Positions 1,470 to 53,900 of a DNA stretch of 64,000 nt are shown here, in pieces. A program made the translations under genes and the position numbers. Position 1 is the stretch's first letter. Each line of letters starts with the position of its first letter. Origin of the DNA: Chiloscyllium plagiosum (Eukaryota); the NCBI RefSeq assembly GCF_004010195.1, contig NC_057759.1:2275199-2339198 (forward strand). The letters are read 5' to 3'. Below the pieces are notes generated by a model. The model searched no databases and was not told where the DNA came from. It saw only the letters and a program-made list of their open reading frames with translations.

Positions 1470-2092
1470 TGGCACATATCCCTTTAAATCCTTCCTGTTC
1501 ATTTACCCATTCAGGCTCCTTTTAAATGTTGTAATTGTTTCCACCTTCATCACTCATTCCATATGCACATCACCCTCTGCATGAAAAGGTTGTTCCTCAG
1601 GTTATTTTTAAAATCTTTGCCCTCTCACCTTAAACCTATGCCCTCTATTCTCCTCCACCCAAGGAAAAATACCTTGGCTTTTCATCCTATCGATGCCCCT
1701 CATGATTTTATAAGCATCTGTAAAAATCACCCCTCAGATTCCGATGCTCCAGGGAAAAAAGCCCCAGCGTATTCAGCCTCTCCCGATAAATTCAAACACT
1801 GGTAACATTTCTGTCAATTTTTTTGCACCCTCTTAAGATTAACAACATCCTTCCTATGGCAGCGCGATCTAAACTGTACGCAGTTCTCTAACAGTGCCCT
1901 AACCAATGTCCTATGCAGCCCGAACATGATGGCCCAGCTCCTAAACTCAGTGCACTTACCAAAGGAGACAAGCATGCCAAACACCTTTTTTACAACTTTT
2001 TCTAACCGCCACTCCACTTTCAAGCAGCTGTTCATATGCACTGGTGGTCTTATACAGTAAATGGTAGGACTATGGGGAGTGTTGCCAAACAA
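1470..2092 (-). mobile_element. Degenerate CR1 3' fragment
   Basis: ORF 1814..2092 (RTLVRALLENCVQFRSRCHRKDV) resembles the CR1 C-terminal domain; same 3' sequence as other CR1 copies in the window. Confidence 0.85.
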
Positions 2093-3399
2093 TAAGTCCT
2101 GCCCTTTTTTGAGCTATGAGAATGTATATGTAACTACATTCTCTCTCTGTCAGCTTCTGCAATGTGAATATGTGGGAGCAGCTTAGTCAGTTTCTGCGGT
2201 GTGACTGTGGGAGTGAAGTTCTCAATCTGTATTAATCAGTTTCTACTCTTACATACCAATTTGGCTTAATTCCCTGGCAGCCACTAATATTTTCCGTGAC
2301 TGTGATTTATTCCATTGGAAAAGTTATGAGGATGTTGAAATGGGGTCTTTATCTTAACCTCTAAGCATTTTGTGAATTCTGAGTTTTTGCTTAGTCTGTG
2401 GGTTAAGGAAGAGGAAAGCAGACGGGCATATAGTTCAGAATCCCAACAATTACTGAAAACTTGTATGCAGAACAGTAAAATAATAGAATGGGATAAATGG
2501 CCTGCGTTTGTACTGTACCAATTCTGTGATTCAGGTGAATAAAAGGCATTCACATCCTATTGTACATAGTATCAGTATAAAACTATCATGTAGCAATGGA
2601 CAGATCAGTTTATTAAAAAAAAAATGGTCCTGTCAATCAGTGTAGGATATTTCCTTGCTTTGGGTTCTGTGTTATCACTGAGACATTTGGTTTCGAATTG
2701 AACGTAGACATTGTTGAAGTTTCTTTTGTTTGAAAGTGAGATTTATTCTGCATTTGTCTATTCATCCTGCATGTTTTTTTTAATTGTTGCACATTATTTA
2801 ATTATTGTGTCTTCAGTCCCGTTTCCCCTTGCTGGGGAGCATATGAGCACTCGTGAGTCGTTTTTCAGCTGTTTCTATTTCTTGAAGTTACACTTTAACA
2901 CTTGATCAGTTCCGGAGCCACCATTCACGGTGGGATATGAACAGTGAATAATACTACAGGCAAACGAAAAAGAAACGTGCCCCCGTTTTTGAGTACGAGG
3001 AGCAGATGGCGCTGTTTTCTCCGATTCCAGATGACAGTAAATGAGGCTTTCTGCTGTCGGTGAGAGATTATCAAAATGAACCGAGATCAAACCAGAGCAG
3101 CTGCAGGACTGGGATGGCAAATGTGGAGCTTTTGCTGATGTCAGAACTAGTGCACAAAGGCTAGGCGACATTAAAATATTGTCTAAAGACGATTAATGAG
3201 CTCAGCCGGAAGAACGTTCTGTAATGTTTAATCAACATTTCGGAGTGTTTTCGAAATGTGAAATGAAGAGATTAATTGCAGATTGCAGTTCTTGGCGCAT
3301 GCTTTTGTTTCTGCCAGTTCTTCAGGTCCAGAAAAGAGAAAAAAGTAGAAAGAGATAGATGCAGTTAGGCAAATGGATGAGCGAGAGAGATTGCCTGAA

Positions 3400-3578
3400 G
3401 TATGGTTTAGAGATGCCGGTCTTGGACTGGGATGTACAAAGTTAAAAAAAAAACACAACACCAGATTATAGTCCAATAGGTTTATCCACCTGATGAAGGA
3501 GCGGCGCTCTGAAAGCTAGTGTGGTCCCAATTAAACCTGTTGGACTATAACCTGGTGTTGTGTGATTTCTAACTTTGT
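3400..3578. mobile_element. Short fold-back (inverted-repeat) Penelope-type tail element enclosing a hammerhead motif
   Basis: Arm 3436..3484 is the near reverse complement of 3532..3578; hammerhead core lies in the spacer. Confidence 0.75.
3487..3521 (+). ncRNA. Minimal type I hammerhead ribozyme motif (family A)
   Basis: CAC-CTGATGA-A-GGAGC ggc GCTCT-GAAA-GC-TA-GTG: complete catalytic core, stem II, stem I CAC/GTG, palindromic AGCT in place of stem III. Confidence 0.75.
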
Positions 3579-4345
3579 CTGAGGTATATATTTGTAACCG
3601 AATTAACAAGTATTGATGGATTCTCCTCTGAACAACGTCCTCTTTTTCAATGTAAAACATACTCCGTTGTTTGTAAATCGGCGGGCTTTTCAAATCGGAA
3701 AGAAAGTTATTGATGATTTGGCGCTGGCTTCAAGAGAAGGGAACGTGCCCTCTCTACTCCCTGCCTCTTGGGAGCATATTAAACACCAGTAAATCTTTTT
3801 TTCTTCTGTTTGCTGCTATCTGCTCAAGTTACTCTCTAACATTTGGTTATTCCAGGAGCTACAAGCCCCGGTTGGGATGTGAGCCCTGAGTGTCAACCCC
3901 GGGAAACAGATCCATGGGTAGATACATTACACACTGATTTTTCAATTTCCAAAACTCCGCGGGGGCGGCAATGATGATTGAATGATGTAAATGAGGTTTT
4001 CTGCTGTCAGCTAGAACCAGAACAGTTGCCGGACTGGAATAGTTAATGTGGAGCTTCTGCAATAAGGGAGCACGGTATTAAAATAATATCGAAAGGCAGT
4101 GTTCGTTATCAATGCGCTCACGGACAAGAACGTTCATGAAATCCTGACAGGGCTGAATGAGGGCATTCGGCCCATCGAGACTGAAACTTCCCTTCGAAGA
4201 GAATCTCGAATCCTTTAAATAGCTTCTGGACTCAGTACCCTAAAGAAAGACTGTGTGAATTGGACTTTTATAATCGAAAAGCAAATTAACGACGAAGTAC
4301 GAATGCGTTGTGTTCTATAAAACGGCCTTCTCTGATCTACATCGT

Positions 4346-4405
4346 GGCGGGATTTTCAAATGTGAAAGAAAACGGTTGATGATTTTGGCGCCATGTTTTC
4401 CCGCC
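4346..4405. promoter_or_regulatory. Cluster of E2F/CHR-like cell-cycle motifs
   Basis: GGCGGGATTTTCAAA (4346..4360), TTTTGGCGCC (4383..4392), TTTTCCCGCC (4396..4405); motif match only. Confidence 0.4.
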
Positions 4406-4701
4406 TGCTTTCTCAGCAAAGACAGCTGGTGGGAACACCAAGGGAGACAGTGAGGACAGAGGAGATGTCATCCGGAATAAACATTCCCCGACCTAATATA
4501 TAATGTAATAATTGCATAACATTCATGGCAATGTACTAATCGGTGCCGCAGAAAGCCGTGTCTTCCAACTAACTCCCCTCCCGGCTCGGCTAGATTCAAA
4601 ATATATTGAAGAACAACAGAATTGACTTCGTGCGGAGGGAACAAATTAATGTCGTGCTCTCAGGTCCCCTATCGCTTCCCGCTCCCTCTGGATGGTTTCG
4701 T

Positions 4702-4717
4702 GGCTCTGAAAAGAGCC
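4702..4717 (-). terminator. Histone mRNA 3' stem-loop
   Basis: Minus strand reads GGCTCTTTTCAGAGCC, about 50 nt after the H3 stop, followed by purine-rich HDE-like CAGAGGGAGC. Confidence 0.96.
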
Positions 4718-4768
4718 GTTGTGCTTTTCTCTGTCTCGGGGTGAATGTGCCGGGAGGCCAAGCTCCGT

Positions 4769-4851
4769 TTAGGCGCGCTCCCCGTGGATCCGGCGGGCCA
4801 GCTGGATGTCTTTGGGCATGATGGTGACCCGCTTGGCGTGGATGGCACACA
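4769..4851 (-). CDS. H3: Replication-dependent histone H3, C-terminal part (remainder in assembly gap); gene or pseudogene
   Basis: Translates CAIHAKRVTIMPKDIQLARRIHGERA*, the canonical H3 C-terminus except R131H. Confidence 0.95.
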
Positions 4852-5007
4852 NNNNNNNNNNNNNNNNNNNNNNNNNNNNNNNNNNNNNNNNNNNNNNNNN
4901 NNNNNNNNNNNNNNNNNNNNNNNNNNNNNNNNNNNNNNNNNNNNNNNNNNNNNNNNNNNNNNNNNNNNNNNNNNNNNNNNNNNNNNNNNNNNNNNNNNNN
5001 NNNNNNN
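4852..5007. other. Assembly gap (156 N)
   Basis: Run of N. Confidence 1.
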
Positions 5008-5037
5008 CTGTCAATGCTGAGGCTGCTGCGGTGCTGC

Positions 5038-5162
5038 CTATTTAAGGGAACGGAGAGCCCGCCCTAGAGCTGGGATTGGATACAGCCCTGTCCCTTAACC
5101 CACAGATAAACAGCTCCGGAAGGAAAGAAAAGGCAGGAAAAGAATTGTTGGAGTCTGATTGG
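5038..5162 (-). promoter_or_regulatory. Histone-type promoter facing the gap and H3
   Basis: Minus strand: CCAAT boxes (5158..5162, 5075..5079), GC box GGGCGGGC (5057..5064), TATA-like TTAAATAG (5038..5045), in the expected order. Confidence 0.7.
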
Positions 5163-5169
5163 TTCACTG

Positions 5170-5250
5170 GAAATGACAGTTGGTCAGGGTGGACAAAGTT
5201 AAAAATCACACAACACCAGGTTATAGTCCAACAGGTTTATTTGGAAGCAC
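5170..5250 (-). mobile_element. Second, truncated copy of the family-A Penelope-type tail
   Basis: acaaagttaaaaatcacacaacaccaggttatagtccaacaggtttat matches the arms of 3436..3578. Confidence 0.8.
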
Positions 5251-5259
5251 ACTTGATAT

Positions 5260-5299
5260 GCAGACGTTTCATTACCTGGCTAGGTAACATCATCAGTGG
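5260..5299 (-). ncRNA. Minimal hammerhead ribozyme motif in Penelope 3' terminal repeat (family B)
   Basis: Minus strand: CCA-CTGATGA-T-GTTACCT agcc AGGTAAT-GAAA-CG-TC-TG; GUC cleavage triplet. Confidence 0.82.
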
Positions 5300-7444
5300 C
5301 GACCTCCAAGTGAAGTGAAGCTGTTGTCTCCTGCTTTCTATTTATATCTTTCTCCTGGATGGGGTTCCTGGGGCTTGTGGTGATGTCACTTCCTGTTCGT
5401 TTCCGGAGGGGTTGATAGATGGCATCTAGATCTATATGTTTGTTTATGGCGTTGTGGTTGGAGTGCCAGGCCTCTAGGAATTCTCTGGCATGTCTTTGCT
5501 TAACCTGTCCCAGGATAGATGTGTTGTCCCAGTCGAATTGGTGGGTTTTTTCATCCGTGTGTAGGGCTACGAGGGAGAGAGGGTTGTGTCTTTTTGTGGC
5601 TAGCTGGTGTTCGTGTATCCTGGTGGCTAACTTTCTTCCAGTTTTTCCTACGTAGTGTTTGTGGCAGTTCTTGCATGGAATTTTGTAGATGACATTGGTT
5701 TTGTCCATGGGTTGTACTGGGTCTTTTAAGTTTGTTGGTTATTGTTTGAGAGTGTTGGTGGGTTTGTGTGCTACCAGGATTCCGAGGGGTCTTAGTAGTC
5801 TGGATGTCATTTCTGAAACTTATTTGATGTATGGTAAGGTGGTTAGGGTTTCTGGCTGTGTTTGGTCTGCTTGTCGTGGTTTGTTCCTGAGGAATCTGCG
5901 CACTGTAATTTTTGAGTATCCGTTCTTCTTGAATACGTTCTCCTGTGTTCTCCTCTGTTTTCCGAAGGTCGTCTGTGATGCAGCGTGTGGTGGCTCGTTG
6001 GAATAGTGTTCTGATACAGCTTTGTTTCTGTGTGTTGGGATGGTTGCTGGTGTAGTTGAGTATTTAGTCAGTGTTTGTCGGTTTTCTGTATACACAGGTT
6101 TGTAATACTCCGTTGTCCTTTCTTTCTACTGTGACGTCCAGGAATGCGCGTTTGTTGTCGGTTTCTTCCTCCTTGATGAACTTTATGCCTGTGAGGGTGT
6201 TGTTGATGATGTTAAATGTCTCTTCTATATTGTTTCGTTTTGTGATGACAAAGGTGTCATCTACGTAGCGGACCCAGATTTTTGGTTTGATGGTTGATAG
6301 GGCTGTTTGTTCTCGCCTTTGTATTACTGCTTCGGCTGTGAATCCTGATAGCGGAGATCCCATGGGTGTGCCATTGGTTTGTTTGTAGACTATGTTGTTG
6401 AAAGTGAAGTGGGTGGTGAGACACAGGTCCACTAGCTTCATGATATTTTCGTTGGTAATGTGATTGATGGTGGTTGGTGTGTGTGTGATGGTCTCTTCTA
6501 AAAGTGTGGTAAGTGTTTCCTTTGCCAGGTCGATGTTGATGGAGGTGAAGAGTGTGGGGTTGTGGGGTCTGGTCTAGCACCACCTGTTGGTAGGTGTTAG
6601 TGTCTGCGAGTAGTGCATTGGCTTTCTCTATGTAATCCCTTCTGTTCAGGATGACTGTGAGCCGACCTTTGTCTGCAGGTAATACAACGATGTTTTTGTC
6701 TTTTTTGAGGTTTTCTAGGGCTTTCTTTTCTTGTGTGTTCAGTTTGTTTCCTTCCCTCTTTCGGCTCAGAGTAAGTGCAACTGTCTGTCTGATCGTTTGT
6801 TGTGTTTCTTCCGTGAGATTGTTGCCCTTCAATGTGGTTTCTAATGCCGCTAGGAAATCCTTCCTGTCAGTGGCTCGGTAATTGAAATTTAATCCTTTTA
6901 CTAGTACCGCTTTTTCTGTGTCTGATAGGGTCCGGCCTGATAAGTTCTTTATCCATGCCCCTGTGTTATCGGTTTTGTCTTTTTTTGTGTGAGTTTGTCA
7001 AGTTTTTTCTTCAGGTCCCGATTTTTCTTTATCTGTGTTTGTCGTTATTTGGTCTTTGTGGCTCGTTCTACCGGGTCTGTCCATTCTTGATTTGTTGCTT
7101 GTTTGAATAACAGTTTTTGGCGCGCAATTTCCCGGTTGTATTTTCGCAGTCTGTGGTGGGCGTCATTGATTAGTTCTCGGAGCATTCTGCGGCCGTTTTG
7201 TTCTGTTAAACTTCTGGCTTGAGGTGTTTTTATCGGCGGTTTATATTGGAGACATTTTGGCAATACCTGTTTTCTGAAACATTCATGCAGGAAGTACAGT
7301 TGTTCGTGGGTGGAACTTTCTCGGATGGCATTCCTTTCCCATCTTCGGGCAAGTTGTAGCGTGTTGCGCCCATAGGTTTTTGAAGGTTTATGAAGGTTTG
7401 AGGTTTAGGGTGTAGGTTTGCTCGCTGAGCTGTAGGTTTGATAT

Positions 7445-7484
7445 CCAGATGTTTCATTACCTGGTTAAGTAACATCATCAGTAG
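7445..7484 (-). ncRNA. Hammerhead motif in Penelope 5' terminal repeat (palindrome mutated)
   Basis: Minus strand: CTA-CTGATGA-T-GTTACTT aacc AGGTAAT-GAAA-CA-TC-TGG. Confidence 0.72.
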
Positions 7485-7564
7485 CGACCTCCAAGTGAAG
7501 TGAAGCTGTTGTCTCCTGCTTCCGATTTATATCTTTCTCCTGGATGGGGTTCCTGGGGTTTGTG

Positions 7565-10500
7565 TTGTTTCTGCTGCAACACCATTAGTCTTTCAAGGCT
7601 AAACACTTCTGCCTGACCCACTGCCTGTTTAGGTATTTCCTGCACCATGACATCAAACAGTCTGTCTATTAACTGCACCTCAACACCTTTATCTTTCTCC
7701 TTAATTTTTTTCTTCTGTCTGTAGCTTCTGATCGTGGGATTTGTTACTACACAGTCTGGAAAAAAATCCACTAAATCGTTCCAAAGATAAAACTGGATTC
7801 CTGGAACTGACACACTGTCAGTCATTCCCACTAATCTTGAATTGGCACTGCAACCTGATGTTAAGTGAAGGACTGCAAAAGTTCTGTCCATCTATCCCAC
7901 AAATTACCACTCATTCGTGTATCAGATCAGAAAATGTGCAAATAAGTTAATCTTTTACTATTAGAGACTGATTAAAATCTGTATCACTCAAAATTATAAC
8001 ATCTTTACCCCTACTCCCGCAGTTCTTACTGAGTAAACTTTACTCACAGTGGTGAAGTCCTTATAGAGCTCAGGCACTAACTGCACACATAGCCCCTGCC
8101 AGGCTGTGCAGTCTGCTGCAGCTTCTCGACCTTTCTTCGGGTTTCGTTTGCTACTTTCATTATGCCACTGGCTTAGCTTCTTTGACCGCATCTTTTCCCA
8201 CAGCGTCTTTCTTCACCAATCAGCACTATGACTTCCTTGTCCCACTTTCTGGCAGTGAAAACGCATTTTTCCAGTGCCTTTCTTAAACCACGGGCACTGT
8301 AATTTTCTGTGTCCCACCCCATTACAATGAAAACACCCAAGGCCTTTCACCTCCTTTCCCCAATCTTGGCTTCTTTTTTAACCTTGGGTAAACTATTACC
8401 AGTGTGCTCTACTCTTTGTTTTATATGATAGAATACCCCATATCCCAATTTCTATCCCTTACTAGATGAATTTCTAGCCAGAGGCTAAACCTTTTCTCAT
8501 GCACAAATGTATGTTCATTTGCAATCTCTGCTGCGCTTCTCACTTCTCGAACTTTCTGTTCATCCAAATGAATTCTTAACATTTCTGGAAATGAGTTTTT
8601 AAACTCCTCTACCAGAAACATCTGTCTTAGAGCTTCATAGGTCTTAAATATTTTTGTGTCCTGCACCCATCTATCAAAAATATTTTTAATTCTTTCAAAC
8701 TCAATATAAGTCAGAACTGGTTCCTTCGTTATGTTTCTGAACCGTTGTCTATACGCTTCTGGTACCAATTGATCAGCACTCAAAACAACGGATTTGTGAG
8801 GTGTAGGACTTGCCTTACAAGTCTTATTGAATTCTTTGAGGAGGTGACCAAGCATGTGGATGAGGGTAGAGCAGTGGATGGAGTTTAGTAAGACATTTGA
8901 TAAGGTTCCCCATGTAGGCTTATGTGGAAAGTCAGGAGGCATGGGATAGTGGGAAATTTGGCCAGTTGGATAGAGAACTGGCTAACTGGTCGAAGTCAGA
9001 GAGTGGTGGTAGATGGTAAATATTCAGCCTGGAGCCCAGTTACAAGTGGAGTTCCGCAGGGATCAGTTCTGGGTCCTCTGCTGTTTGTAATGTTTATTAA
9101 TGACTTGGAAGATGGAGTCGAAGGGTGGGTCAGTAAATTTGCAGACGATACGAAGATTGGTGGAGATGTGGATAGTGAGGAGGGCTGTTGTCGGCTGCAA
9201 AGGGACTTATATATGATTCAGAGCTGGGCTGAGGAGTGGCAGATGGAGTTCAACCCTGTCAAGTGTGAGGTTGTCCCATTTTGGAAGGACAAATAAGAAT
9301 GCGGAATACAGGGTTAACGGTAGGGTTCTTAGTAAAGTGGAGGAGCAGAGGGATCTTGGTGTCTATGTTCCCATAGCTCTTTGAAAGTTGCCACTCAGGT
9401 GGCTAGAGCTTGGAAGAAGGCCTATGGTGTATTAGCGTTCATTAGCAGAGGGATTCAATTCAATAGTCGTGAGGTGATGTTGCAACTGTACAGGACTTTG
9501 GTTAGGCCACATTTGGAGTACTGTGTGCAGTTCTGGTCGCCTCATTTTAGGAAAGATATGGAAGCTTTGGAGAGGGTGCAGAGGAGATTTACCAGGATGT
9601 TGCCTGGAATGTAGAATAGGTCGTACGAGGATAGGTTGAGTGTGCTAGGCCTTTTCTCAATGGAACGGTGAAGGATGAGGGGAGACTTGATAGAGCTTTA
9701 TAAGATGATCATGGAAATAGATAGAGTAGACAGTCAGAGTCTTTTTCCCCGGGTACAACAGAGCGTTACAAGGGGACATAAATTTAAGGTGAAGGGTGGA
9801 AGGTATAGAGGGGAATGTCAGGGGTAGGTTCTTTACCAAGAGAGTAGTGGGGGCATGGAATGCGCTGCCTGTGGGAATGACAGAGTCAGAATGATTGGTG
9901 ACCTTTAAGCGGCAATTGGATAGGTACATGGATAGGTGCTTAAGCTAGGACAAATGTTCAGCACAACATCGTGGGCCGAAGGGCCTGTTCTGTGCTGTAT
10001 TGTTCTATGTTCTATGTTCTAACCTATTTGACATTTTCATAATCTCTTGACCCCTCATCTGACAGCACTGCAAATACATAACCTGCTCTCCCTACCAGTT
10101 TAGTCTGAACTAGTATTACCCACAAGTTCTATGACCACTCCATCTGCAAAGCTAATTTCTAAACTGAAATAAAGAAGGCCTCAACATCTTTTTCATCAAA
10201 ATGTGGCAGTTTTTATAACATACTGGTCGATATCACTACATTCCATTTTCACCTTCATCCAGTTAACTTGACTTTATTGACTAATTCGCAACTGCTGAAG
10301 TTCGAGTCTCTCTCATTTTCTCTTTCTTTTCTCTCTCCCTTTCTCCTCTCTCCCTTTCTCTCTCTCTTTCCTTTTCTTCTTTCTCCCTTTTATTCTCTCA
10401 CTCTTTGCTCATTTAAGAACCTTCATTCTTTCTTTTTCCTCTCTCTCTTTCTCTCTCTTTTCTCTCTCTTTCTCTCTCTCTTCTCTCTCTCTTTCACTCT

Positions 10501-15139: not shown

Positions 15140-17380
15140 TTGCCGAGAGGTGCGAGGGAGGAGCGAAGGACTTCTCGGAAGGTGAGTCTAACAGTTTAAA
15201 ACACTTTCTTCAGGCGTGGGGGCCTCCATTTGCCAAGAGGTGCGAGGGAGGAGCGAAGGACTTCTGGGAAGTTTGTAAGTTGGTGAGATGTAAAACTGAC
15301 TACAGGGAGTTTGGTTGGAATCTGAAGAGCAGGACGAGGAGAGTAGTGATCTCAGGTTTGCTACTGGTGTCACGACTTAGTGAAATGAGGAACAGTCAGT
15401 GAATGCAGCTTAACACGTGGCTGCGAGGCTGCTGCAGGAGGGACGACTTCAGATACCGAGACCATTGGGATACCTCCTGGGGAAGATGCGACCTGTACAC
15501 AAAGGATGGGTTGCACCTGAATTGGAGGGGAACAAATATCCTGGGTGGGAGATTTGCTTGTGAGATTCGGGAGGGTTTAAACTAGTTTGGCAGACGGTGG
15601 GAATCAGAGCCACGTGTCTGAGAGGGGATCAGTGACAGGATATATTGAATCTATCAGAAAGGTTTGTCATGCGACGAAACGTAGGGATCGGTTAAAGTGT
15701 GTCTGCTTTAATGCAAGGAGTGTCCAGAATAAGAGTGACAAATTTAGAGCATGGATCAGTACTTGGGGCTATGATGTTGTGGCTATAGCGGAGACGTGGG
15801 TTTCACACGAACAGGAATAGTTGCTTGATATTCCAGGGTCTAGAATATTTAAAAAAGAACAGGGAGGGTAGAAAAAAAATGGGTGCAGCATTGCTAATCA
15901 GAGAGTACATCACAGCTACGGAAACGAAAGTTGCTGAGGAAGGTTTGTCTACTGAGTCAGTATAGGTGGAAGTTAGGAACAGCAAGGGAACAGCCACCAC
16001 ATTTGGGGATTTTCTACAGACCACCTAATAGCAGGAGAGAGATTGAAGATCTTACAGGTGGGCAGATTCTGGAAAAATGCAAAAGGAGCAGGGATGTTGT
16101 TATGGATGACTTCAACTTTCCCACTATCGACTAGAACCTCCAAAGTGCAGATGGTTTGAATGGAGCCATTTTTGTCAGGTATGTTCAGGAGGTTTCCTTA
16201 CTCAGTATGTAGACAGACCGACGAGGGGAGAGGCCATTTTGGATTTGGTGCTCGGCCCGAAACGTCGAATCTCCTGTTCCCTGGATGCTGCCTGACCTGC
16301 TGTGCTGTTCCAGCAATAAAGTTTCAACTGCCTCACATTTAGCATAGCCTTGGAGAGTGAAAGGAGTAGTTACCGAGGGAAGATAGTTAACTGGGGAAAA
16401 GGAAATTATGACGCTATCAGACAGGAGTTGGGAAGTACAGACTGGGAGCAATTGTTCCACAGAAAGGGCACAGCAGACATGTGGAGATTATTTAAGGAGC
16501 AGTTGTTGCGAGTGATGCACAAATTTGTTCCTCTCAGACAGTTAAGAAGGGGTAAGATTAAGGAACCTTGGCTTACGAGAACAGAGGAAGTTGTCGTCAA
16601 AAGGAAGAAGGCAGCTTACGTAAGGTGGAGGAAGCAATGATCCAGCACAGCTTTAGAGGATTACAAGCTTGCTAGAAAGGAGCTCAGAAATGGACTGAGG
16701 AGAGCCAGGAGGGGGCATGAAAAAGGCTTGGCAAGTCGGATTAGGGATAATCCAAAGGTATTTTACTCATACTTGAGGAATAAGAGAATACTCAGGGATA
16801 AGGTAGGGCCGATCAGGGACAGCGGAGCGAACTTGTGCGTGGAGTGTCAGCAGATGGGGAAGCCCTAAATGAGTTTTTTGCTTCAGTTTTCAACAAAGAA
16901 AGGGAACTTGTTGTAAATGAAAGCTTAGAGGAGCTGGGATACAGTCTTGACCAGATCAAGATTGATGACGTTGATGTGCTAGAAATTTTGGAAAACATTA
17001 TGATTGATAAGTCCCCAGGAGGAAGAGAGGAAACCTGATGGAGGTGTACAAAATAATGAAAGGAATAGCCAGAGACTTTTCCCCATGGCAGGATTGACTG
17101 GTATGAGAAGTCATAGTTTGAAGATATTATGAGTAAGGTATAAAGGAGATATCAGAGATATGTTCTTTACGCAGAGAATTGTGAATGCATGGAATGCATT
17201 GCTAGCAGTGGTGGTGGAAGCAGAGTCATTGGGAACATTTATGCAACTGCTGGACATGCACATGGATAGCAGTGAAATGAAGGGTGCATAGGTTAAGTTA
17301 CCATATTTTACATTAGGATTAAATCTCGGCACAACATCGTGGGCCAACGGGCCTGTTCTGTGCTGTACTTTTCTATGTCT
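15140..17380 (+). mobile_element. CR1 LINE with 5' UTR and 3' tail but large internal deletions
   Basis: ~40-bp direct repeats at 15142 and 15231; ORF1 esterase end DGLHLNWRG; endonuclease FNARSVQNK..VAIAETW; jumps from DKSPG (~17020) to the extreme C-terminus. Confidence 0.9.
16255..16329 (+). mobile_element. Family-C Penelope-type tail fragment (3' half of hammerhead) inside CR1
   Basis: gcccgaaacgtcgaatctcctgttccctggatgctgcctgacctgctg matches the arms at 24379..24540. Confidence 0.8.
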
Positions 17381-18889
17381 GTTAGTGATATGGCCTCTAG
17401 TGGGAGATCATGGACAAGTTATGAACTGTGTCGGATATAGTGGATCTTGGTTTTCATGATCACCTGAAGACATTTAAAATCGAGAAGAGTCCTTACCTTC
17501 AGGCACTAATATGGTATAGGGATTCTTCACTGTTCCAACATTTGACTTTGAAAACCTGTCAGCTACGCAAAATTGTTTGGTTCCTCGGAATTGAGGAATG
17601 AGACTGTGATCTTTTCAGACATCTGGCTTTATTTCCTCTATATATAGACTACGAAAGTGCAAGACACATCTTCAGCAACAGCTTTGATTATGCTCCTTCC
17701 ATATGTTTTACTTGATCCTTCCTGAAACCGCAAAAAGCGGTCAGTGTATTCTGTTCGTCTACCTACTCGCAAGCTGTTCCTCGCATTGTAACTCCAAGGC
17801 CTCGGCAACAGTCTGTTTGTCACGAATGTGTCTCATGTGGGCTTCAACCAGATTTTCAACGGCATTTGCAAGCCAGCTCTTTGCAATTGCATTTGGAAAT
17901 GGAACCCTTGTTATGCTTTAGCTTAATCGCCCAAATTTCAATGTGCTCCACAGTTGAGTTGACACAAATACATAAATATGGATGTTTTCCTTTGTTCGGG
18001 CACAACTCTCTGGATTTTCTACCTCCGGGTAGAAAATCTTTGATGCTAGATTGAACTTCTGGTTGTTAAGTAAACCATTTGGTCGTCCCACCCTAACTGT
18101 TCAGTGTAGATGAGTTGGGCCAAAGGGTCCGTTTCCTAGTTGTATAACAATAACTCTATGACTGAACTTCCTCCAAGTTAACAAAGAAGGGTTCCTGGAC
18201 TAGGCAATTTAACACTACCTTTTCTCTACATATATTACAGTGCTCCCCCCAAAAAATCTGTTGTTGCTTCAGATCTTAGCAGCAGCAGTTCTTTGTTTTT
18301 TTCCTAAATGGCATCACCTCATCCCTCACTGCACCACACTACCTATACTAGATTTCCTAACCATAGGGAAACATCTTCCATGCTTCCAGCCTGACTATCT
18401 CTTTCAGTAATGTGTATGTGTCAATGAGCTCATCTCTAAGACATAAGAAGGGAATGAATGGAAAAGCCTTCACGCAATGCCCCACTTCCCCATACCCTGA
18501 GCTAGAATTGGGCTGGGCGGGGGGAGAGTCGGGTTGAGCAAATCCCCTAGAGGCTTATCACTCTGGAGAAATGACGCTGGTCAAAAAACTAAAGCTGCAA
18601 TAAATATGAGCTGAAACCACCACAGCTCCCCTCTGGAACTTAGATCCTCATTGGGAGCTATGAGAATGAACAAGACCCCTCACGTATTGCTATCAAAATC
18701 TGAAGCAGTAACAAAGCTGTATCATGATAAAGTTGGACTTGAACTTACCAGCAGTATTGGACTCTCTATGAAACATAAGGTCCAACAGTGTGTCAATCCA
18801 GCTGCAATGGCTTTTTATCGGATCCAGACTTTGCTGCTCTATTAACGATGTCTGAATCCATCCACACTCAGTACTCCTAGTAAGGACTG

Positions 18890-21350
18890 TTTAAATCCAT
18901 TGTCAAACTGTTCGCCTAGCAACAGCCTGCAAATCCATCCGAAGTCTGTTTCCTTAGCAACAGCCTGTGAACGCATTTCAACTCTGTTCCCCTAGCAACA
19001 AACTGTAAAACCATCCTCACATAATTCTCCCAGCAACAGCCTCTCAACCCATCCCCATTCTGTTCACCTAGTAGCAATCTGTGAACCCACTATTACTCCG
19101 TTTCATTAGCAAAGGGCTGTGGAACTGTCCAATGGCTGTTCCACCCTAATGGCCAATAAACTCATCCCAACTAAGTTCTCCTGGCAACAGCCTGTGAATC
19201 CCAGCCATCTTTTCCCACGAGGGATGTCCCGTGAAACCATGCACACTCTGCTTCCTTAGAAACAACCTGTGACCCATCCCCACTCTGTTTCCCTAACAAT
19301 AGCCTGGGAATGCATTGTCACTCTGTTCCCATAGCATCAACATGTGAACACATCCCAACTCTGTTCTCCTAGCAACAACCTGGGAACATGTCCCCATTCT
19401 GTTACCCCAGCAATGGCATGTGAAACTACCCTAGTCTGTTCGCTTAACAGCGACCTGGAACCTAACCCTGCTGTTATCATCTCGCAATGATCTGTGTACC
19501 CATCATTTGTGGGATGTCCAAGCAAAGACGTTTGAACTCATACTCAGTCTGATCACCCAGCTTCATCCTTTGAACCCAATCTGTTCGATGGCAATGGAAT
19601 GTTATGTGCCTGCACTATATTCACATGGTAACAGCCTGTGAATCCATCCTCATTCTATTCTCCAAGCAAAAGTCTGACACCTCATCCCCGCTCTGTTTCC
19701 TAGCAATGGTCTTTGACCCCATTCTCTATTGGTTCTCCTAACAATGGCTGTGAACCCATTCCCACTTTGCTGTCCGAGCAACGGCCTATAAATCCACCCC
19801 AACCCTGTTCTCATAGGAACGCCTGTAAACCCATCCACACTCTGTTCACAGAGCAATGGTGTGCGACGTTGTCCCCACTCTATTTCCCTTGCAACGACTG
19901 TAATCGGATTTCCACTTTTTCCCCCAGCAGCAGCCTGTGAACCCATCCCTACTCTGTTCTTCTGCCAATGGTCTGTGAACTCATCCCCAAATTGTTTGCC
20001 TAGAATGGGCCTGTGAACAATCCCCACTCTGTTTCACTGGCTAAAGACTGTGAACCCATCCTAAATATATTCCCCAATAACGGCCTGTGAATCCATACCC
20101 GCATAGTTTCGCCAGCACCATTTTGTGACAACATCCCCACTCTTTTCCTTTGACCACATCGCCAGCCTGTGAACATATCACCACTCAGTTCTCCTAGCAT
20201 TAGTCTGTCAAACCATTCTCTCTCTTCTTCTAGCAACTGCCTGTGAACATAATCCACAAAGTGGTCTCCCAGCAACAGTCCATGACCCTCATCCCTCTCT
20301 GTTTCCCTTGCAACAGTCTGTGATCACATCATCGCCCTGTTTTCCTAGCAACGGCCTGTGGACTAACCTCCACTCTTTTCCTTTACCAACGGTCTCTGCA
20401 AACATCCCTGCGCTTATTTCCTAGCAACAGCCTGTAACTCCATTCCCACTCTGATCTCCCAGCAACAGCCTGTGACCCAATCGGCGACATTGTGTCCCCA
20501 GCAATGAACTGTAATTTAGTCCTCACTCTGTTCTTCTAGTAGCGGCCTGTGAACTCATCCCTACACTATTCCCTCCATGGCATTCTCACGAATTGTCAGT
20601 GAAGCCATCGCCAGCTGAATATCCTAGCAAAGGCTTGTGACCCCATCCCCATTCTGTTCCCCAAACAATTACCCCTCTGTTCCCTAGCAACAGTCTGTGA
20701 AACCTTCTCCACACTCTTCTCCTAGCAACAGACTGTAACATTATCGTCAACTGTTCTCCTAACAACGGCGTGTGAACCCATCCCATTCTGTTCTCCTCTC
20801 AACAACTTGGAGACTCATTCACAATCTTTTCCTATAGCAATGGCCTGTGAACCCATCCTCACTCATATTCCCCAGAAACTGCCTGTGAACTCATTGCCAC
20901 TCTGTTCTCCTGGCAACGACAAGTGAACACATCCCTACAGTGTTCCCATGAAAATGGTCTGTACACCCATCCTCACTCTGTTCTCCCAGCAATGACTTGT
21001 GAATCCATCCCACTCTGTTCTCCTAGCAACGGCATGTGATCCCTTCTGCACTCTGTTCTCCTAGCAATGGCCTGTGAACCCATCCCCACTCTGTCCCACT
21101 AGGCACAGCCTGTAAACCCATCCTCACTTATTTTCTCCAGCAGCTACCTGTGGACTCATTGCCACTCTCTTCTCTGAGGAACGAATTGTGAGTGCATCCA
21201 TACTCTGTTCCTGTGACATCAACCTGCGAACCCATCCACATTCTGTACCCTTAGCAATGACATTTGAACTCATCACCATTCGGTTCTCCAAGCATCAACA
21301 TAGGAACCCATCCCAACTCTTCTCTCCGAACAACGGCGATTGAGCCCGTC
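18890..21350. repeat. Degenerate minisatellite, 38-bp unit, roughly 60-65 copies
   Basis: Consensus CCTAGCAACAGCCTGTGAACCCATCCCCACTCTGTTCT; e.g. CCTAGC at 21022 and 21060. Confidence 0.93.
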
Positions 21351-21808
21351 CGTACTTCTAAGAACAGATCCCATCACCATGGAAGGGAGCACAAGCGTGA
21401 GGAAAGTCGGAGAGAAGGAGAGTGGGAGACAGAGAGAGTGGAAGACCGAGAGAGAGCGAAGGAGAATGGGGCAGTTTGTGTAACACCAGAGGTGAAAGCA
21501 AGGGCAGAGTGACTTAAATTCAACTCCTGAGCTCGGGCTCGGTGCCCTCCCCTTTTCAATACAAAGACCACCAACAATATACTTCACTCTGTTGCTTGGC
21601 ACTTTGTGATGAACATTTCTGTTGTTTAAAAATTGAAGTGATAGATACTTTCAGTGGGATGGTGGCTTTTTGCAGTGATCCATGATTTGAGAGAAATGTT
21701 GAAATTCCCTCTGTGTATGAAGGTTGGACAAACCAGCACTACCCACACTCTGCTACCATATCGATAGGCTGCTTCATTTCTGAAGCACTGAACTGGAATG
21801 GGAAAATA

Positions 21809-24169: not shown

Positions 24170-24797
24170 ATGAAGGTCTTATAAGGAAAGGATTCCGAAC
24201 TTGAGGCTGTTTTCGTTCGAGAGAAGAATGTTGAGAAGTAACTAAATTGAGACATACAAAATAATCAGTTAGATAAGCTGAACAATGAAAGCCTTTGTCG
24301 TCAGATGGTGATGGCTAGAACGAGGGGACATGGATGTAAATTGATGGGTGATCGATATTGAACAGATATCAGAGGTAAAAGCTGAAAATGTGTTGCTGGA
24401 AAAGCGCAGCACGTCAGGCAGCATCCAGGGAACAGGAGAATCGACGTTTCGGGCATAAGCCCTTCTTCAGAAACGTCGACTCTCCTGTTCGCTGGATGCT
24501 GCCTGACCTGCTGCGCTTTTCCAGCAACACATTTTCAGCTCTGATCTCCAGCATCTGCGGACCTCACTTTCTCCTCAAAGATATCAGAGGTAGTTTCTTT
24601 ACTCAGAGAGTAGTATTTACGTGGAATGCACTGGCTTTAGTAGACTCGCCAACTTTAAGGTCATTTAAGTGGTCACTGGATAAACGTATCAATGAAACTG
24701 GTATCGTGTGGTATAGATATGCTTCGGATTGGTTCTACAGGTTGGTGCAATATCGAGGGCCGAAGGCACTGCACTGCACTGTAATGTTCTATGTTCT
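24170..24797 (+). mobile_element. CR1 3' fragment interrupted by a fold-back element
   Basis: DIRGSFFTQRVVFTWNAL motif; ATGTTCTATGTTCTA tail. Confidence 0.88.
24378..24578. mobile_element. ~200-bp fold-back element with hammerhead core (family C) and 14-bp TSD
   Basis: AGATATCAGAGGTA at 24364..24377 and 24579..24592; ~70-bp inverted arms; minus strand CTGAAGA-A-GGGC ttat GCCC-GAAA-CG-TC at 24443..24470. Confidence 0.88.
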
Positions 24798-27299: not shown

Positions 27300-28040
27300 T
27301 CCTGGAGACTGGGTCCAGTGGGTCTGGAGACTGCATCCGATTTTCTTGAAGGATGACCACGGTGTGGTCTGAACTCTGGGCTGGGTGCAGTCTGGCGATG
27401 GGGCCAGATGCGGTCTAGAGACTGGGCCGAGTGCAGTCAGGAGACTGGGCCTGGTATAGCCCGGAGCCTGGGTCAGGTGCAGTTTAGAGACTAGGACCAG
27501 TGCGGTCTGGAGTCTCAACCCAGAACGGTCTGGAGAGTGGATCCACTTCAGTCTGGAGACTTGGCCCAGTGTGCTCTGGAAACATGGACCAGTCCTGTCG
27601 GGAGAGTGGGGCTTTTCTGGTCTCGAGACAGGGTTCAGTGGTCTGGAGACTGCACCCGGTGCATTTTGGAGACTGAGCCAAGTACGATCAAGAATCTCAG
27701 CCCGGTGTGGTCTGGTGATTCAGACGGGTGCAGTGTGGAGACTGGGCAGGGTGGTTCTGGGGACTGGTCCTGATGTGGTCTGGAGTCTGGACCCAGCTCA
27801 GTCTGGAGACTGGGCCCTGTTTCGTTTGGAGACTGGGTCTTAGGTGATCTGGAGACTGGTCCCAGTGTGGTGTGGTGACTGAGTCTGGTGCAGTCTGGAG
27901 ACTGTGCCCAGTGCAGCACGGAGACAAGGCCCAGTGTGGTAACAATTCTTGGTCCATTGTGGCCTGGAGACTGGGTCCAGTACAGTCTGGAGGTTGGACC
28001 TGGTGCATATTTGGAGATTCAGTGCTGGCACAGACTGGGG
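27300..28040. repeat. Degenerate minisatellite, 23-bp unit
   Basis: Consensus TCTGGAGACTGGGCCCAGTGCAG; GGAGAC recurs at ~23-bp spacing. Confidence 0.9.
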
Positions 28041-37921: not shown

Positions 37922-38055
37922 TCACAGTTCTAAGAAAGGGTCACTTGACCCAAAGCATTAACTCTGATTTCTCTGCACAGGCACTGACAGACCAGCTGAG
38001 CTTTTCCAGCAAGTCCTTTTGTTTTCTGACTTACAGCATCCGCAGTCCTTTCAGA
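37922..38055 (+). mobile_element. Decayed Penelope-type tail with relic hammerhead
   Basis: AGTT-ctaagaa-a-GGGTCA ct TGACCC-aaagcatt-AACT keeps stems I and II but the core is mutated; followed by cttttccagc..cagcatccgcag like family C. Confidence 0.55.
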
Positions 38056-38389
38056 TTTGTGTTTGTATGATTGACAGCCACGAACAAGGTGCTGGAGGAA
38101 TGGAAGACAGCTAATGCTGTTGACGTTATGTTTAGAAAGGATGCAAAGAAAAACCCGGGATCTACAAACCCGTGAGTCTGATGTCAGGGGTGGGGATGTG
38201 TTTGGAGGAGATTCTGAGAGACAGGATTTGCATGCATTCAGAAAGGTAAATACATATTGTGGATAGTCAGCATTATCTTGTACAAGCTAAAATGCGTCTC
38301 ACAAACTTGCCTGATTTTTTTCAAGAGATGACCAAGAAACTAGTCAAAAGCGAAGCAGCACACGTTGGCAACGTGGTCCATAGTGAGAC

Positions 38390-38820
38390 CCAGAGTCAAA
38401 AAGTGTGGCACCAGAAGAGCACAGCTGATCTGATAGCATTCAAGAAGCAGGAGAGTCGGCGTTTGAAGCATAAGAATTTCAGCCGGAATGTGGGGTGTGT
38501 CCCCAGCGGACTGAAAGGTACTTGGGAGTGGGCTTGGCTGAGGGAAAGGCAGGTGATAATGCGATTGGTAGACAGAGGTGGGGGTAAAAGTATACATCAT
38601 AGAGGTGAGTGGAGCAGACAAGTGGGAAGGAAGATAGACAGGTAGGACAGTCCAAGACAGCGGTGGTGAGTTGGAAGGTTTGGTCAACCATTCCTGATGA
38701 AGACCTTATGCCTGAAATGTCGACTCTCTTGCGCATTGGATGCGGCCTGAGCGGCTGTGCTTTTCCAGCGACACACTTTTTGACTGCGGATCTCCAGCAT
38801 CTGCAGTCTTCCTTTTGTCC
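38390..38820. mobile_element. Older, longer family-C fold-back element
   Basis: 38390..38490 is the diverged reverse complement of 38690..38790; CTGATGA at 38694 and GAAATGTC at 38714. Confidence 0.75.
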
Positions 38821-39252
38821 TTTGTTAACTGGTTAATCAGATTAGATCACAGAGAATCAGGGAAAGCCAACCAATTAGATTTTTTTTAAAAAAAACTTAT
38901 CTGTAGGAGACATAGCGTGGTGGAAGAGATTTGTTGGTCCAGCTTGAGCTCTGTTACCAGCAGTATGCCATAGGTTCAGTTCTGGCTCTCTAGCGTTTGT
39001 TATTTTGATAAATGATTTGGATGGGAACATAGGAAACATGGATAGTAAGTTTGTAGATGCCACTAAAAATTGTTTTATAGTGGGCAGTGAAGAAGTCCAT
39101 CTAAGAAGACAATGGGATCTTGATCAACTGGACCAGTGAGCCACGGAATGGCAGATGGGGCTTCATGCAGACAAACGTGAGGTATTACATTTTGTTCGAC
39201 GAAACATGGCAAGATTTACACAGCCAATGATAGGGCACTCAGAATGTTACTG

Positions 39253-40954: not shown

Positions 40955-41047
40955 TTATTGCCGAGGGGCTTTTGCCCAAAACGTCGATTTTCCTCTTCCT
41001 TGGATGCTGCCTGACCTGTTATGCTTTTCCAGCACCACACTCTCGAC
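40955..41047 (+). mobile_element. Family-C Penelope-type tail, hammerhead core mutated
   Basis: GGGC tttt GCCC aaaacgtcga..ggatgctgcctgacctg..cttttccagc. Confidence 0.75.
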
Positions 41048-50914: not shown

Positions 50915-53900
50915 TAGAACATAGAACAAAGAACAAAGAAAATGTACAGCCCAGGAACAGGCCCTTTGGCCATGACCTGCTGTGCTTTTCCAGCACTACT
51001 CTGATCTAAACTCTGGTTTCCGGCATATGCGATCCTCACTTTTGCCTCCAAGCCTGAGTTGATCCAAATCTACTGTCCAAACCTGTCGCCCAATTTGTAA
51101 GCATCTGTATCCCTCTTCTCTCCACCTGCTCATGCCACTGTCCAGACGCATCTTAACTGAATCTACTGTGCCTGCCTCTACCACCTCTGCTGGCAACGCG
51201 TTCCAGACGCCCACCACCCTCTGTGGGAAGTACTTGCCCCGTGTATCCCCCTTAAACGTTCCACCTCTCACCTTCAAAGCGTGACCTCTCGTTATTGAAT
51301 CCTTTGCCCTGGGAAAAAGCTTGTCTCTATCCATTCTGTCTATACCCTTCATGATTTTGTAAACCTCAATCAGGTCCCCCCATCACCTTTTTTTCTAGTG
51401 AAAACAAACCTAACCTACTCAACCTCTCTTCTTAGCTAATACCTCTCACACCAGTCAACAACCTCGTAAACCTTCTCTGCACCCTCTCCAAAGCGTCCAC
51501 ATCCTTTTGGTAATAAGACGATCAGAATTCTACACAGTATTCTAAATGCGGCCGAACCAATGTCTTGTACAATTTGAACACGACTTGCCAGCTCTTATAC
51601 GAAACACCCTGTCCAGTTAAGGCAAGCATACTATATGCCTTCTTGACCGCTCTATCCACTTGTCCAGCAACCTTCAGGGCACAATGGACCTGCACTCCGA
51701 GATCTCTCTGCCAATCAACTTTTCCCCAGGCTCTTCCATTCATTGTATCATTCTCTCTAGAACTAGTCTTGTCTAAATGCAACACCTCACATTTGTCTGG
51801 ATTTAAATCCTTCTGCCACCTTTCCGCCCAACTCTCCAGTCTGTCTATATCCTCCTGTATTCTTTGACAGTCCCCTATGCTTTCTGCTACTCCACCAATC
51901 TTCGTGTCATCTGCAAACTTGCTGATCATACCAACACTGCCCTCTTCCAGATCATTTATACATATTACAAACAACAATGCCCCCAACACTGACCCCTGTG
52001 AAGCACCTCTGGTCCCCTTTCTCCATTTTGAGAATTTCATTTCAACTACTACTCTCTGTCTTCTGTTGTTGAACCAGGTCTTTACCACCCAGTTAGAACA
52101 CCCTGCATACCATGTAACTTCACTTTCTCCATTAATCTACCATGGAGAACCTTATCAAATGCCTTATTAAAGTCCATGTATATGACAGCAACAGCCCCTC
52201 CTTCATCTAACAACTTGGTCACTTTCTCAAAAAACTCTATTAAGTTGGTAACGCACGACCTCCCTGGCACAAAACAATGTTGCCTATCACTGATGAGTCC
52301 ATTCTTTTCCAAATATAAATAGATCCTATCCCTTTCCCACCACCGACGTCAGGCTCACTGGTCTGTAGGTACCTGGAATATCCCTACTAATCTTCTTGTA
52401 CAGGGGGACAAGATGAGCAATCTTCCACTCCTCCGGTACCTCAGCTGTATTTAAGGATGCCACAATTATATCTGTCAGGGCCCCAGCTGTTTCCTTTCTC
52501 GCCTGCGCCAGCAACCTGGGATAGATTCCATCCGATCCTGGGGATTTGTCCAACTTAATAACCTCTAGCTTACCTAACTAACCCATCTTCCCTACTTATT
52601 TCAACGCGATCCAGACTAATCAAACTTCTATATCTAATCTCAAGATTCAACATGTTCCTCTCGTCAGTGAACACTGATGCAAAGTAATCATTCAGAATTT
52701 CACCCATTCTCTCAGGTTCGATACACAGCCTTCCCTCATTATTCTTTGTGAAACAAACCTTTTCTCTAGTAACCCGCTTGCTTCTTATATAAGAATAAAA
52801 TGCTTTGAGATTCTCCTTAATTCTGCTCGATAAAGCTATTTCATGACCCCTTTCAGCCCGCTTGATTCCTCTTTTAAGACTTATCCTCCTCTTCCGATAT
52901 TCTTCCAGGGTCCGTTCTGTTCTTAGCTGCCCAGACCTTATATATGATTTCCTTTTCCTCTTGGCTAGTCGTACAATTTCTCCTGTCGTCCATAGATCAG
53001 GAATCTTGTCCTTCCTATCCTTTGCCTTCAACAGGGCATGCCTATTCTGCACTATCTTTAACCTATCTTTGACAGCCTCCCACACATCAAAAGTGGACCT
53101 CCGTTCAAATATCTGTCTCCAATCCACATTTCAGAGCTCCTGCCTAATTTTGATATAATTGGCCTTGGCCCAGTTTAGTACTCTTCCCTTAGGACAAGTC
53201 TCATCTTTATCTACGAGTATTCTAAAACTTTCAGAACTGTGTTCACTGTTCACAAAGAAATCCCCCACTGCAACCTTTACCACCTGTCCTGGCTCGTTCC
53301 CCAGTACCAGGTCCAATATGGCCCGTTCCCTTTTCGGACCATTGACATACTGCTCTAGAAAACTCCTGGACGCTTCTTACACATTCTGCCCCATCCAGAC
53401 CTCTGACGCTAAGCGTATCCCAGTCAAGTTTGTGAAAATTAAAATCTCCCATCACCACTACACAATTGCCTCTATATATTTCCATAATCTGTCTACCTAT
53501 TTGTTCTTCGACCTCACGCTCACTGTTGGGAGGTCGGCAATAGAGGCTCAACAATGTAACTGCACCATTCTTATTTCTCAGCTCCACCCATAATGCCTCA
53601 CTACCGAAGACATCCATAGTGTCCCCCTTCAGTGCAGCCGTGATATCATCCTTGACCAGCAATGCAACTCCAACCCCTTCCTCCCCCCCCCCCCCGCTTA
53701 ACTTCCCTCCCTGTCCTGTCTGAAGGATCTATATTCTGGAACATTTAGTTGCCAATCATCCCCTTCTTTCAACCAAGTCTCTGTGATTGCAATAACATCA
53801 TAATCTTAGCCACCAATCCAAGCCGTAAGTTCATTTTCCTTACACTCTATACTCCTTGCATTAAAATAGATGAATTTCAGGCCACCAGTTCTTTTGTGTT

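Follow-up and report, generated by a model that had tools for sequence, protein, structure and literature searches.

The closest described counterparts of the locus analysed here are insertions of endonuclease-bearing (EN+) Penelope-like elements (PLEs) and the minimal hammerhead ribozymes (min-HHRs) of metazoan PLEs. Insertions of Pen2a_Av show an inverted pLTR, a 31-bp tail on one and a 9-bp target-site duplication (TSD) (PMC3846280), and for PLEs in general an inverted 5'-truncated copy together with a 30–40-bp tail has been described (PMC8557442). The protein of the Poseidon element of the anole cuts and extends both target strands in vitro, the tail corresponds to the distance between two internal RT start sites, and ribozyme cleavage is protein-assisted and dispensable for insertion (PMC11167929). 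As monomers the min-HHRs did not cleave and as dimers they cleaved weakly, and pairs on opposite strands 100–700 bp apart were also noted (PMC4209133). Among sharks, an expansion of PLEs has been reported in the whale shark (10.1101/443036).

In the window, by which we mean the whole 64-kb stretch of DNA that was analysed, we find a 175-bp fold-back element (3404–3578) whose limits are fixed by a flanking 9-bp duplication with one mismatch, and we conclude with a probability of about 0.85 that it is a dead-on-arrival, stump-sized insertion of an endonuclease-bearing PLE. An inverted 82-bp copy of the repeat end, with a tail, is joined head-to-head to a forward 93-bp copy that has no tail, and the 3' ends of both copies point to the flanks. 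The sequence-only reading had reported inverted arms of about 48 bp, and these are borne out: the arms, 50 and 48 nt long, pair with six mismatches and one 2-nt gap, the best ungapped pairing being 37 nt at 89%. They are asymmetric because the left arm runs 32 bp past its partner; its truncated end lies about 13 nt downstream of the position where the ribozyme is predicted to cut. The boundaries first proposed for the element, 3400–3578, hold at the right end, whereas the left end is corrected to 3404 by the 9-bp duplication. A TSD score equally good was reached by 450 of 20,000 random site pairs (p ~0.02), which taken alone is suggestive. Four of the five features of EN+ PLE insertions are present at the locus (the inverted pLTR, the tail, the TSD and the hammerhead in the terminal repeat), and the fifth, a repeat joined to an RT and GIY-YIG ORF, was seen only in the distant relative L005/L003 described below. 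The earlier claim that the element is RNA-mobilised is upheld. A diverged direct duplication (2832–3219 and 3767–4135, spacing ~920–950 bp) flanks the element on both sides.

Features of the fold-back element and of related sequences in the 64-kb window
Feature	Position	Strand	Details
Left TSD copy	3395–3403	+	9 bp, 1 mismatch; position agrees with the tail end seen in other contigs
32-bp "tail" extension	3404–3435	-	inverted copy only; same sequence behind 3579 in contigs of four runs
Left arm, inverted 5'-truncated copy of the repeat end	3436–3485	-	self-alignment
Forward PLE terminal repeat end, 93 bp, without tail	3486–3578	+	starts 4 nt before C3
Minimal type I hammerhead motif	3487–3521	+	descriptor search after PMC4209133
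Fold-back right arm, part of the forward copy	3531–3578	+	self-alignment
Right TSD copy	3579–3587	+	
Second fragment of the element's family	5192–5253	-	93.5% over 62 nt; 1.7 kb away
Element B, decayed Penelope/Poseidon-type PLE, 2.3 kb	5254–7567	-	broken RT and GIY-YIG frames
Fold-back of another repeat family (internal control)	24378–24578	.	own minimal hammerhead at centre, 24470–24443 (-)

The forward copy contains a PLE-type minimal hammerhead with a palindromic AGCT, as had been read from the letters alone: the min-HHR descriptor gave one match in the window, at this site only, and none in 300 dinucleotide shuffles of the whole window. No hammerhead model in Rfam matched the element, the best matches being generic hairpin models far below cut-off. 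Core positions C3 to A9 lie at 3490–3496 and are followed by an unpaired extra A (3497) between positions 9 and 10.1, a 5-bp stem II (3498–3510) whose core-proximal pair is a G10.1.U11.1 wobble, GAAA at 3511–3514 and the palindromic AGCT at 3514–3517 (15.1–16.1), and stem I consists of 3 bp (3487–3489 / 3519–3521). The hallmarks of PLE min-HHRs that are present are the CUGANGA core, the extra base between 9 and 10.1, GAAA, the palindromic 15.2–16.2, UH and the short helix I. N17 is A3518, and the motif layout supports the position at which cleavage had been predicted, after this nucleotide. The description of the hammerhead as intact was right for the core and overstated for stem II, where the G10.1-C11.1 pair is replaced by G.U; G-C stands at this place in L005 and in the consensus built from loose ends of other copies, and judged from these sequences the pair is a feature of the family that has decayed in this copy. 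A working ribozyme in this copy is probably not to be expected, and the predictions depict a decayed motif that is unlikely to cleave. In the predicted fold C3 and U4 are sequestered (probability 0.94–0.95), while the pairs of hammerhead stem I have a probability of 0.01, ~4.7 kcal/mol above the minimum. A two-strand cofold, a weak computation, pairs through the stem II strands and not as a double hammerhead.

The search of the window gave no second ribozyme in cis, and the window contains the first 12 bases of the core a single time, a count that speaks against a non-LTR retrozyme monomer spreading via self-cleaved circular RNA from tandem repeats. The hammerhead is of type I, as that origin would have it, and vertebrate retrozymes derive from PLE pLTRs and are present in the one chondrichthyan sampled (bioRxiv 10.64898/2026.07.22.740005). 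However, no tandem array with a period >10 was found at 2000–8000, the ribozyme is minimal whereas those in the tandem retrozymes of PMC7229834 are canonical, and retrozymes are not characterised by tailed arms joined head-to-head. Neither this locus nor the window shows the tandem arrangement, and we consider a retrozyme origin very unlikely.

The folding energy of the fold-back is -66.9 kcal/mol (z = -9.9), and none of 200 shuffles was as stable. A fold of this strength, together with matches to miRNA precursor models with E-values down to 5.9e-6, could be taken to indicate a host-selected hairpin RNA at the locus, either a miRNA-like precursor or a regulatory ribozyme. The miRNA model matches, however, reach 38 bits against a cut-off of 94 and are such as any long hairpin would give. 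The arms have diverged through mismatches and an expanded poly-A run, a single G.U is present, and none of the changes looks compensatory. The low pair probability of hammerhead stem I also speaks against host selection, which at this locus is extremely improbable, and the hairpin would be an integration product of the PLE insertion, not a selected structure.

Two further sets of PLE sequences in the window bear on this conclusion. The sequence-only reading had missed the second fragment of the family, which at 5253–5192 is fused to the 3' repeat of element B, 10 nt behind B's own hammerhead cut site. The 5' end of the fragment (5253) falls on N17/1.1, that is, on the predicted cleavage site, and at the chimeric junction, 5253–5254 (-), the B repeat and the fragment overlap by 1 nt. 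No common target duplication was found around the composite of B and the fragment, and the junction is possibly a template switch between two PLE RNAs. Insertion of B into a copy of the element's family was rejected, since neither a 5' half upstream of B nor a duplication shared around the composite was found. In element B the RVT_1 (E=7.6e-7) and GIY-YIG (E=8.7e-4) matches both fall just under the Pfam cut-off, and no Cys linker was seen. Its direct terminal repeats of 130 bp (7438–7567 and 5253–5382, 93% identical) each carry a minimal hammerhead with a 7-bp stem II (5296–5263 and 7481–7448), unlike that of the fold-back element; B was rejected as the parent of the fold-back on account of its different ribozyme and repeat sequence. 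Nearby, 4682–4851 (-) is presumably the end of a histone H3-like frame; after it lies a match to the histone 3' stem-loop RF00032 (27.1 bits, cut-off 34), and a 156-N gap (4852–5007) holds the remainder of the histone H3-like gene.

The internal control in the table, a fold-back of another repeat family, pairs at 87.6% over 178 nt and is flanked by an exact 14-bp duplication (24364–24377 / 24579–24592). With this second fold-back, which has a hammerhead of its own, the geometry is not special to the 3404–3578 element, and the TSDs of 9 and 14 bp in the two families of the window fit target-primed insertion. Further sites of the control family lie at 16255–16329, 38385–38490, 38686–38830, 40963–41041, 50968–51052 and 37984–38049, and two decayed copies are inverted about 200 bp apart (38385–38490 / 38689–38794). 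Diverged satellite-like arrays with many self-matches of 63–74% occupy 18866–21351 and 27302–28017.

To place the element among its relatives we aligned public contigs from 4 of the 24 listed sequencing runs (four studies; organism labels A, A, C and D) to 3340–3640. In these four runs 39784, 9104, 36535 and 7202 contigs aligned, nearly all inside the element; counts here are of contigs, and summed depths were not taken as copy numbers. The family is of very high copy number, with thousands to tens of thousands of contigs per run. Among the loose ends listed, the sequence behind 3579 continues into the tail in 966, 191, 832 and 137 contigs of runs X5, X1, X11 and X12, and ends near 3568–3577 are heterogeneous (agreement 0.36–0.41); therefore two 3' ends exist. 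Upstream of 3486, 80 X1 contigs among those listed have a common sequence, with an agreement of only 0.52 and a median of 42 nt. Joints to the opposite strand lead from 3486/3487 to four different places, 3528, 3534, 3537 and 3543, none of them in more than 6 contigs per run among the joints listed, and no piece among those listed spans the whole locus. This junction evidence comes from 15 of 98 joints and 24 of 779 loose ends, and it carries moderate weight because few joints and ends are listed and contigs break at repeats. It points to fold-backs that are made anew at each insertion. The varied inversion junctions and the sequence continuing upstream do not describe one amplified MITE-like unit, and, together with the asymmetric arms and the lack of a tandem array, they contradict the earlier proposal of a MITE-like or retrozyme-like fold-back family.

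We give almost no credence to a MITE derived from a DNA transposon, with terminal inverted repeats that picked up a hammerhead, even though the element is short and non-coding, with inverted arms and a 9-bp duplication. The inverted repeats do not extend to both ends, 32 bp at the left being unpaired; arm sequence stands alone, without a partner, at 5192–5253; arm and ribozyme form one continuous repeat end in hundreds of contigs among those listed; the duplication of the control family is 14 bp; and the varied junctions, at the weight just given, reveal no uniform unit. Searches outside the four runs gave no locus with the 23-nt arm motif in viral contigs or in metagenome contigs, and no match to the ribozyme patterns in viral contigs or in GTDB genomes. 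The literature search, which did not extend to Repbase or Dfam, found neither this precise family nor cut-site breakpoints described, and the supplement of bioRxiv 10.64898/2026.07.22.740005 could list a chondrichthyan match.

No ORF of the element's own family was found in the 64-kb window, in agreement with the earlier statement that the window holds no autonomous partner. It had also been suggested to look for a Penelope ORF ending in the element's sequence; the window has none, but a GIY-YIG ORF does lie upstream of a 94%-identical ribozyme elsewhere. A degenerate ribozyme pattern search of metagenome contigs gave 13 loci, two of which (L003 and L005) have a near-identical ribozyme, 94% over 35 nt, and represent one family (99.6% alike over 677 nt). 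The search pattern fixed 20 of the 33 matched bases of L005, and 11 of the 13 others agree. Ten of the 13 loci, having no PLE frame, were set aside as pattern-only matches. The remaining locus, L012, belongs to another PLE, whose hammerhead differs in stem II; it contains a frame with RT-thumb and GIY-YIG (263–1265, -; PF01541 above cut-off) and then a minimal hammerhead sharing the palindromic AGCT.

In L005 the ribozyme lies ~750 nt downstream of a C-terminal GIY-YIG frame with the conserved residues and a CX3CxxC linker, and this frame is 44–47% identical to two RT-domain proteins (P0001 and P0002). Pfam placed no family on the L005 endonuclease, and the GIY-YIG call rests on motif alignment and homologues. 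A CX2-5CxxC linker before a C-terminal GIY-YIG marks Neptune/Nematis elements (PMC8557442); it is present in the distant relative L005, and no ORF of the element's own family was seen. The sequence downstream of the L005 ribozyme has a weak similarity to the arm, scores as high being reached by 115 of 5000 75-mers of real sequence and by 293 of 5000 shuffled ones, and for its comparison with the second fragment the corresponding numbers are 33 of 5000 and 137 of 5000. L005 is closer to the element in the core than in the arm, but it was selected on the core. The per-site table from the four runs is incomplete near contig ends. Because no ORF of the exact family was found, the link to an autonomous parent rests on this distant relative, whose linker suggests that the parent element is probably of Neptune/Nematis type. 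The related marine contigs start with an inverted piece of their own, 1–109 in L005 (3' UTR) and 1–373 in L003 (RT).

The same ribozyme type behind a GIY-YIG ORF in L005 weighs against a dedicated non-autonomous family, in which an ORF-less ribozyme-tipped RNA (or a fold-back unit) from master loci would be moved in trans by a PLE protein in the manner of SINEs and LINEs. Such a family would account for the very high copy number of the short end and for the shortness of every copy that the two families have in the window, the 5' end of each lying within the ribozyme or close to it; pLTRs are sufficient for trans mobilisation (PMC3846280), and non-autonomous PLE derivatives exist (PMC8557442). 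Against it, the junctions vary and no piece among those listed spans the locus, which argues that the fold-back is not the replicating unit, and in other copies the sequence continues upstream of 3486. The literature search turned up no non-autonomous, MITE-like Penelope with inverted repeats, and we regard this explanation as improbable.

Insertion of a PLE stump would proceed as follows. The element's RT/GIY-YIG protein would make a staggered cut in the target, and reverse transcription would be primed from both target strands; one start, at the distal site, would yield an 82-nt cDNA with the tail and the other, at the proximal site, a 93-nt cDNA without it, and the joining of these two short cDNAs would give the head-to-head fold-back. 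The hammerhead would then lie in the "loop" for no other reason than that one cDNA extended across it whereas the other ended before reaching it. An alternative route with similar products is self-priming on an antisense template, which has been proposed for the inverted arrangement in PMC3846280. Arrangements of this kind are already described for PLEs, and the single locus is ordinary.

A more speculative reading concerns the 5' ends. The stumps could be run-off copies and not random truncations, with 5' ends that mark where actual RNAs ended, one class starting just 5' of stem I (the pLTR transcript start, with internal RT starts ~95–125 nt downstream) and another exactly at the hammerhead cut, so that the copies would form a fossil record of in vivo cleavage of the transposition template by PLE min-HHRs. 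In the forward copy the start lies 4 nt ahead of C3, the second fragment starts at 5253 on N17/1.1, and 1 of 12 junction rows among those listed (X12, 3446–3527) starts at the cut or at most 2 nt after it. Two copies of the control family start within ~3–6 nt of their core, but none of four copies of this family in the window starts at its cut site; the numbers are tiny and post hoc, and in Anolis the RNA ends described do not include the cleavage site (PMC11167929). We hold this reading only tentatively and consider it rather unlikely. As one decayed copy of an abundant retroelement end the single locus matters little, and its worth lies in the data that it offers. Stumps of this kind number in the thousands, and should their 5' ends and inversion breakpoints cluster at the transcript start and the ribozyme cut, they would provide a test of how inverted pLTRs arise and of whether weak minimal hammerheads cut in vivo.

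Compared with known systems, the element resembles non-LTR retrozymes (PMC7229834; bioRxiv 10.64898/2026.07.22.740005) in being small, non-coding and pLTR-derived with a type I hammerhead; however, retrozymes are head-to-tail tandems with at least two ribozymes and a circular RNA, whereas the element is a single head-to-head insertion with one minimal ribozyme. With the metazoan PLE min-HHRs (Cervera & De la Pena 2014, PMC4209133) it shares the full core, the extra nucleotide between 9 and 10.1, the palindromic 15.2–16.2 without helix III, the 3-bp helix I and the occurrence as dispersed single copies by the thousand, and it differs in G10.1.U11.1 and in the A at position 17; its exact ribozyme is not among the representative motifs in Fig. 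S3 of that paper, and no cartilaginous fish is named for those motifs. Poseidon PAc of Anolis (Frangieh et al. 2024, PMC11167929) likewise has two 3' ends a tail apart, which in the element's family lie ~60–90 nt downstream of the cut site, and short ribozyme-bearing insertions. The PAc ORF starts in stem II, whereas the ATG in the element's core meets a stop 8 codons on; the nearest ORF-linked relative of the element is, unlike PAc, of Neptune/Nematis type, with the Cys linker; and the PAc RNA-seq data described have no ends at the cleavage site, whereas here one DNA copy starts at it. From EN+ PLE insertions of the Pen2a_Av type, as described in PMC3846280 and PMC8557442, the element differs in that its halves are both <100 bp, no ORF is left and the ribozyme lies in the loop, but it shares with them the head-to-head 5'-truncated repeat end, the tail of 31–32 bp on one copy and the 9-bp TSD.
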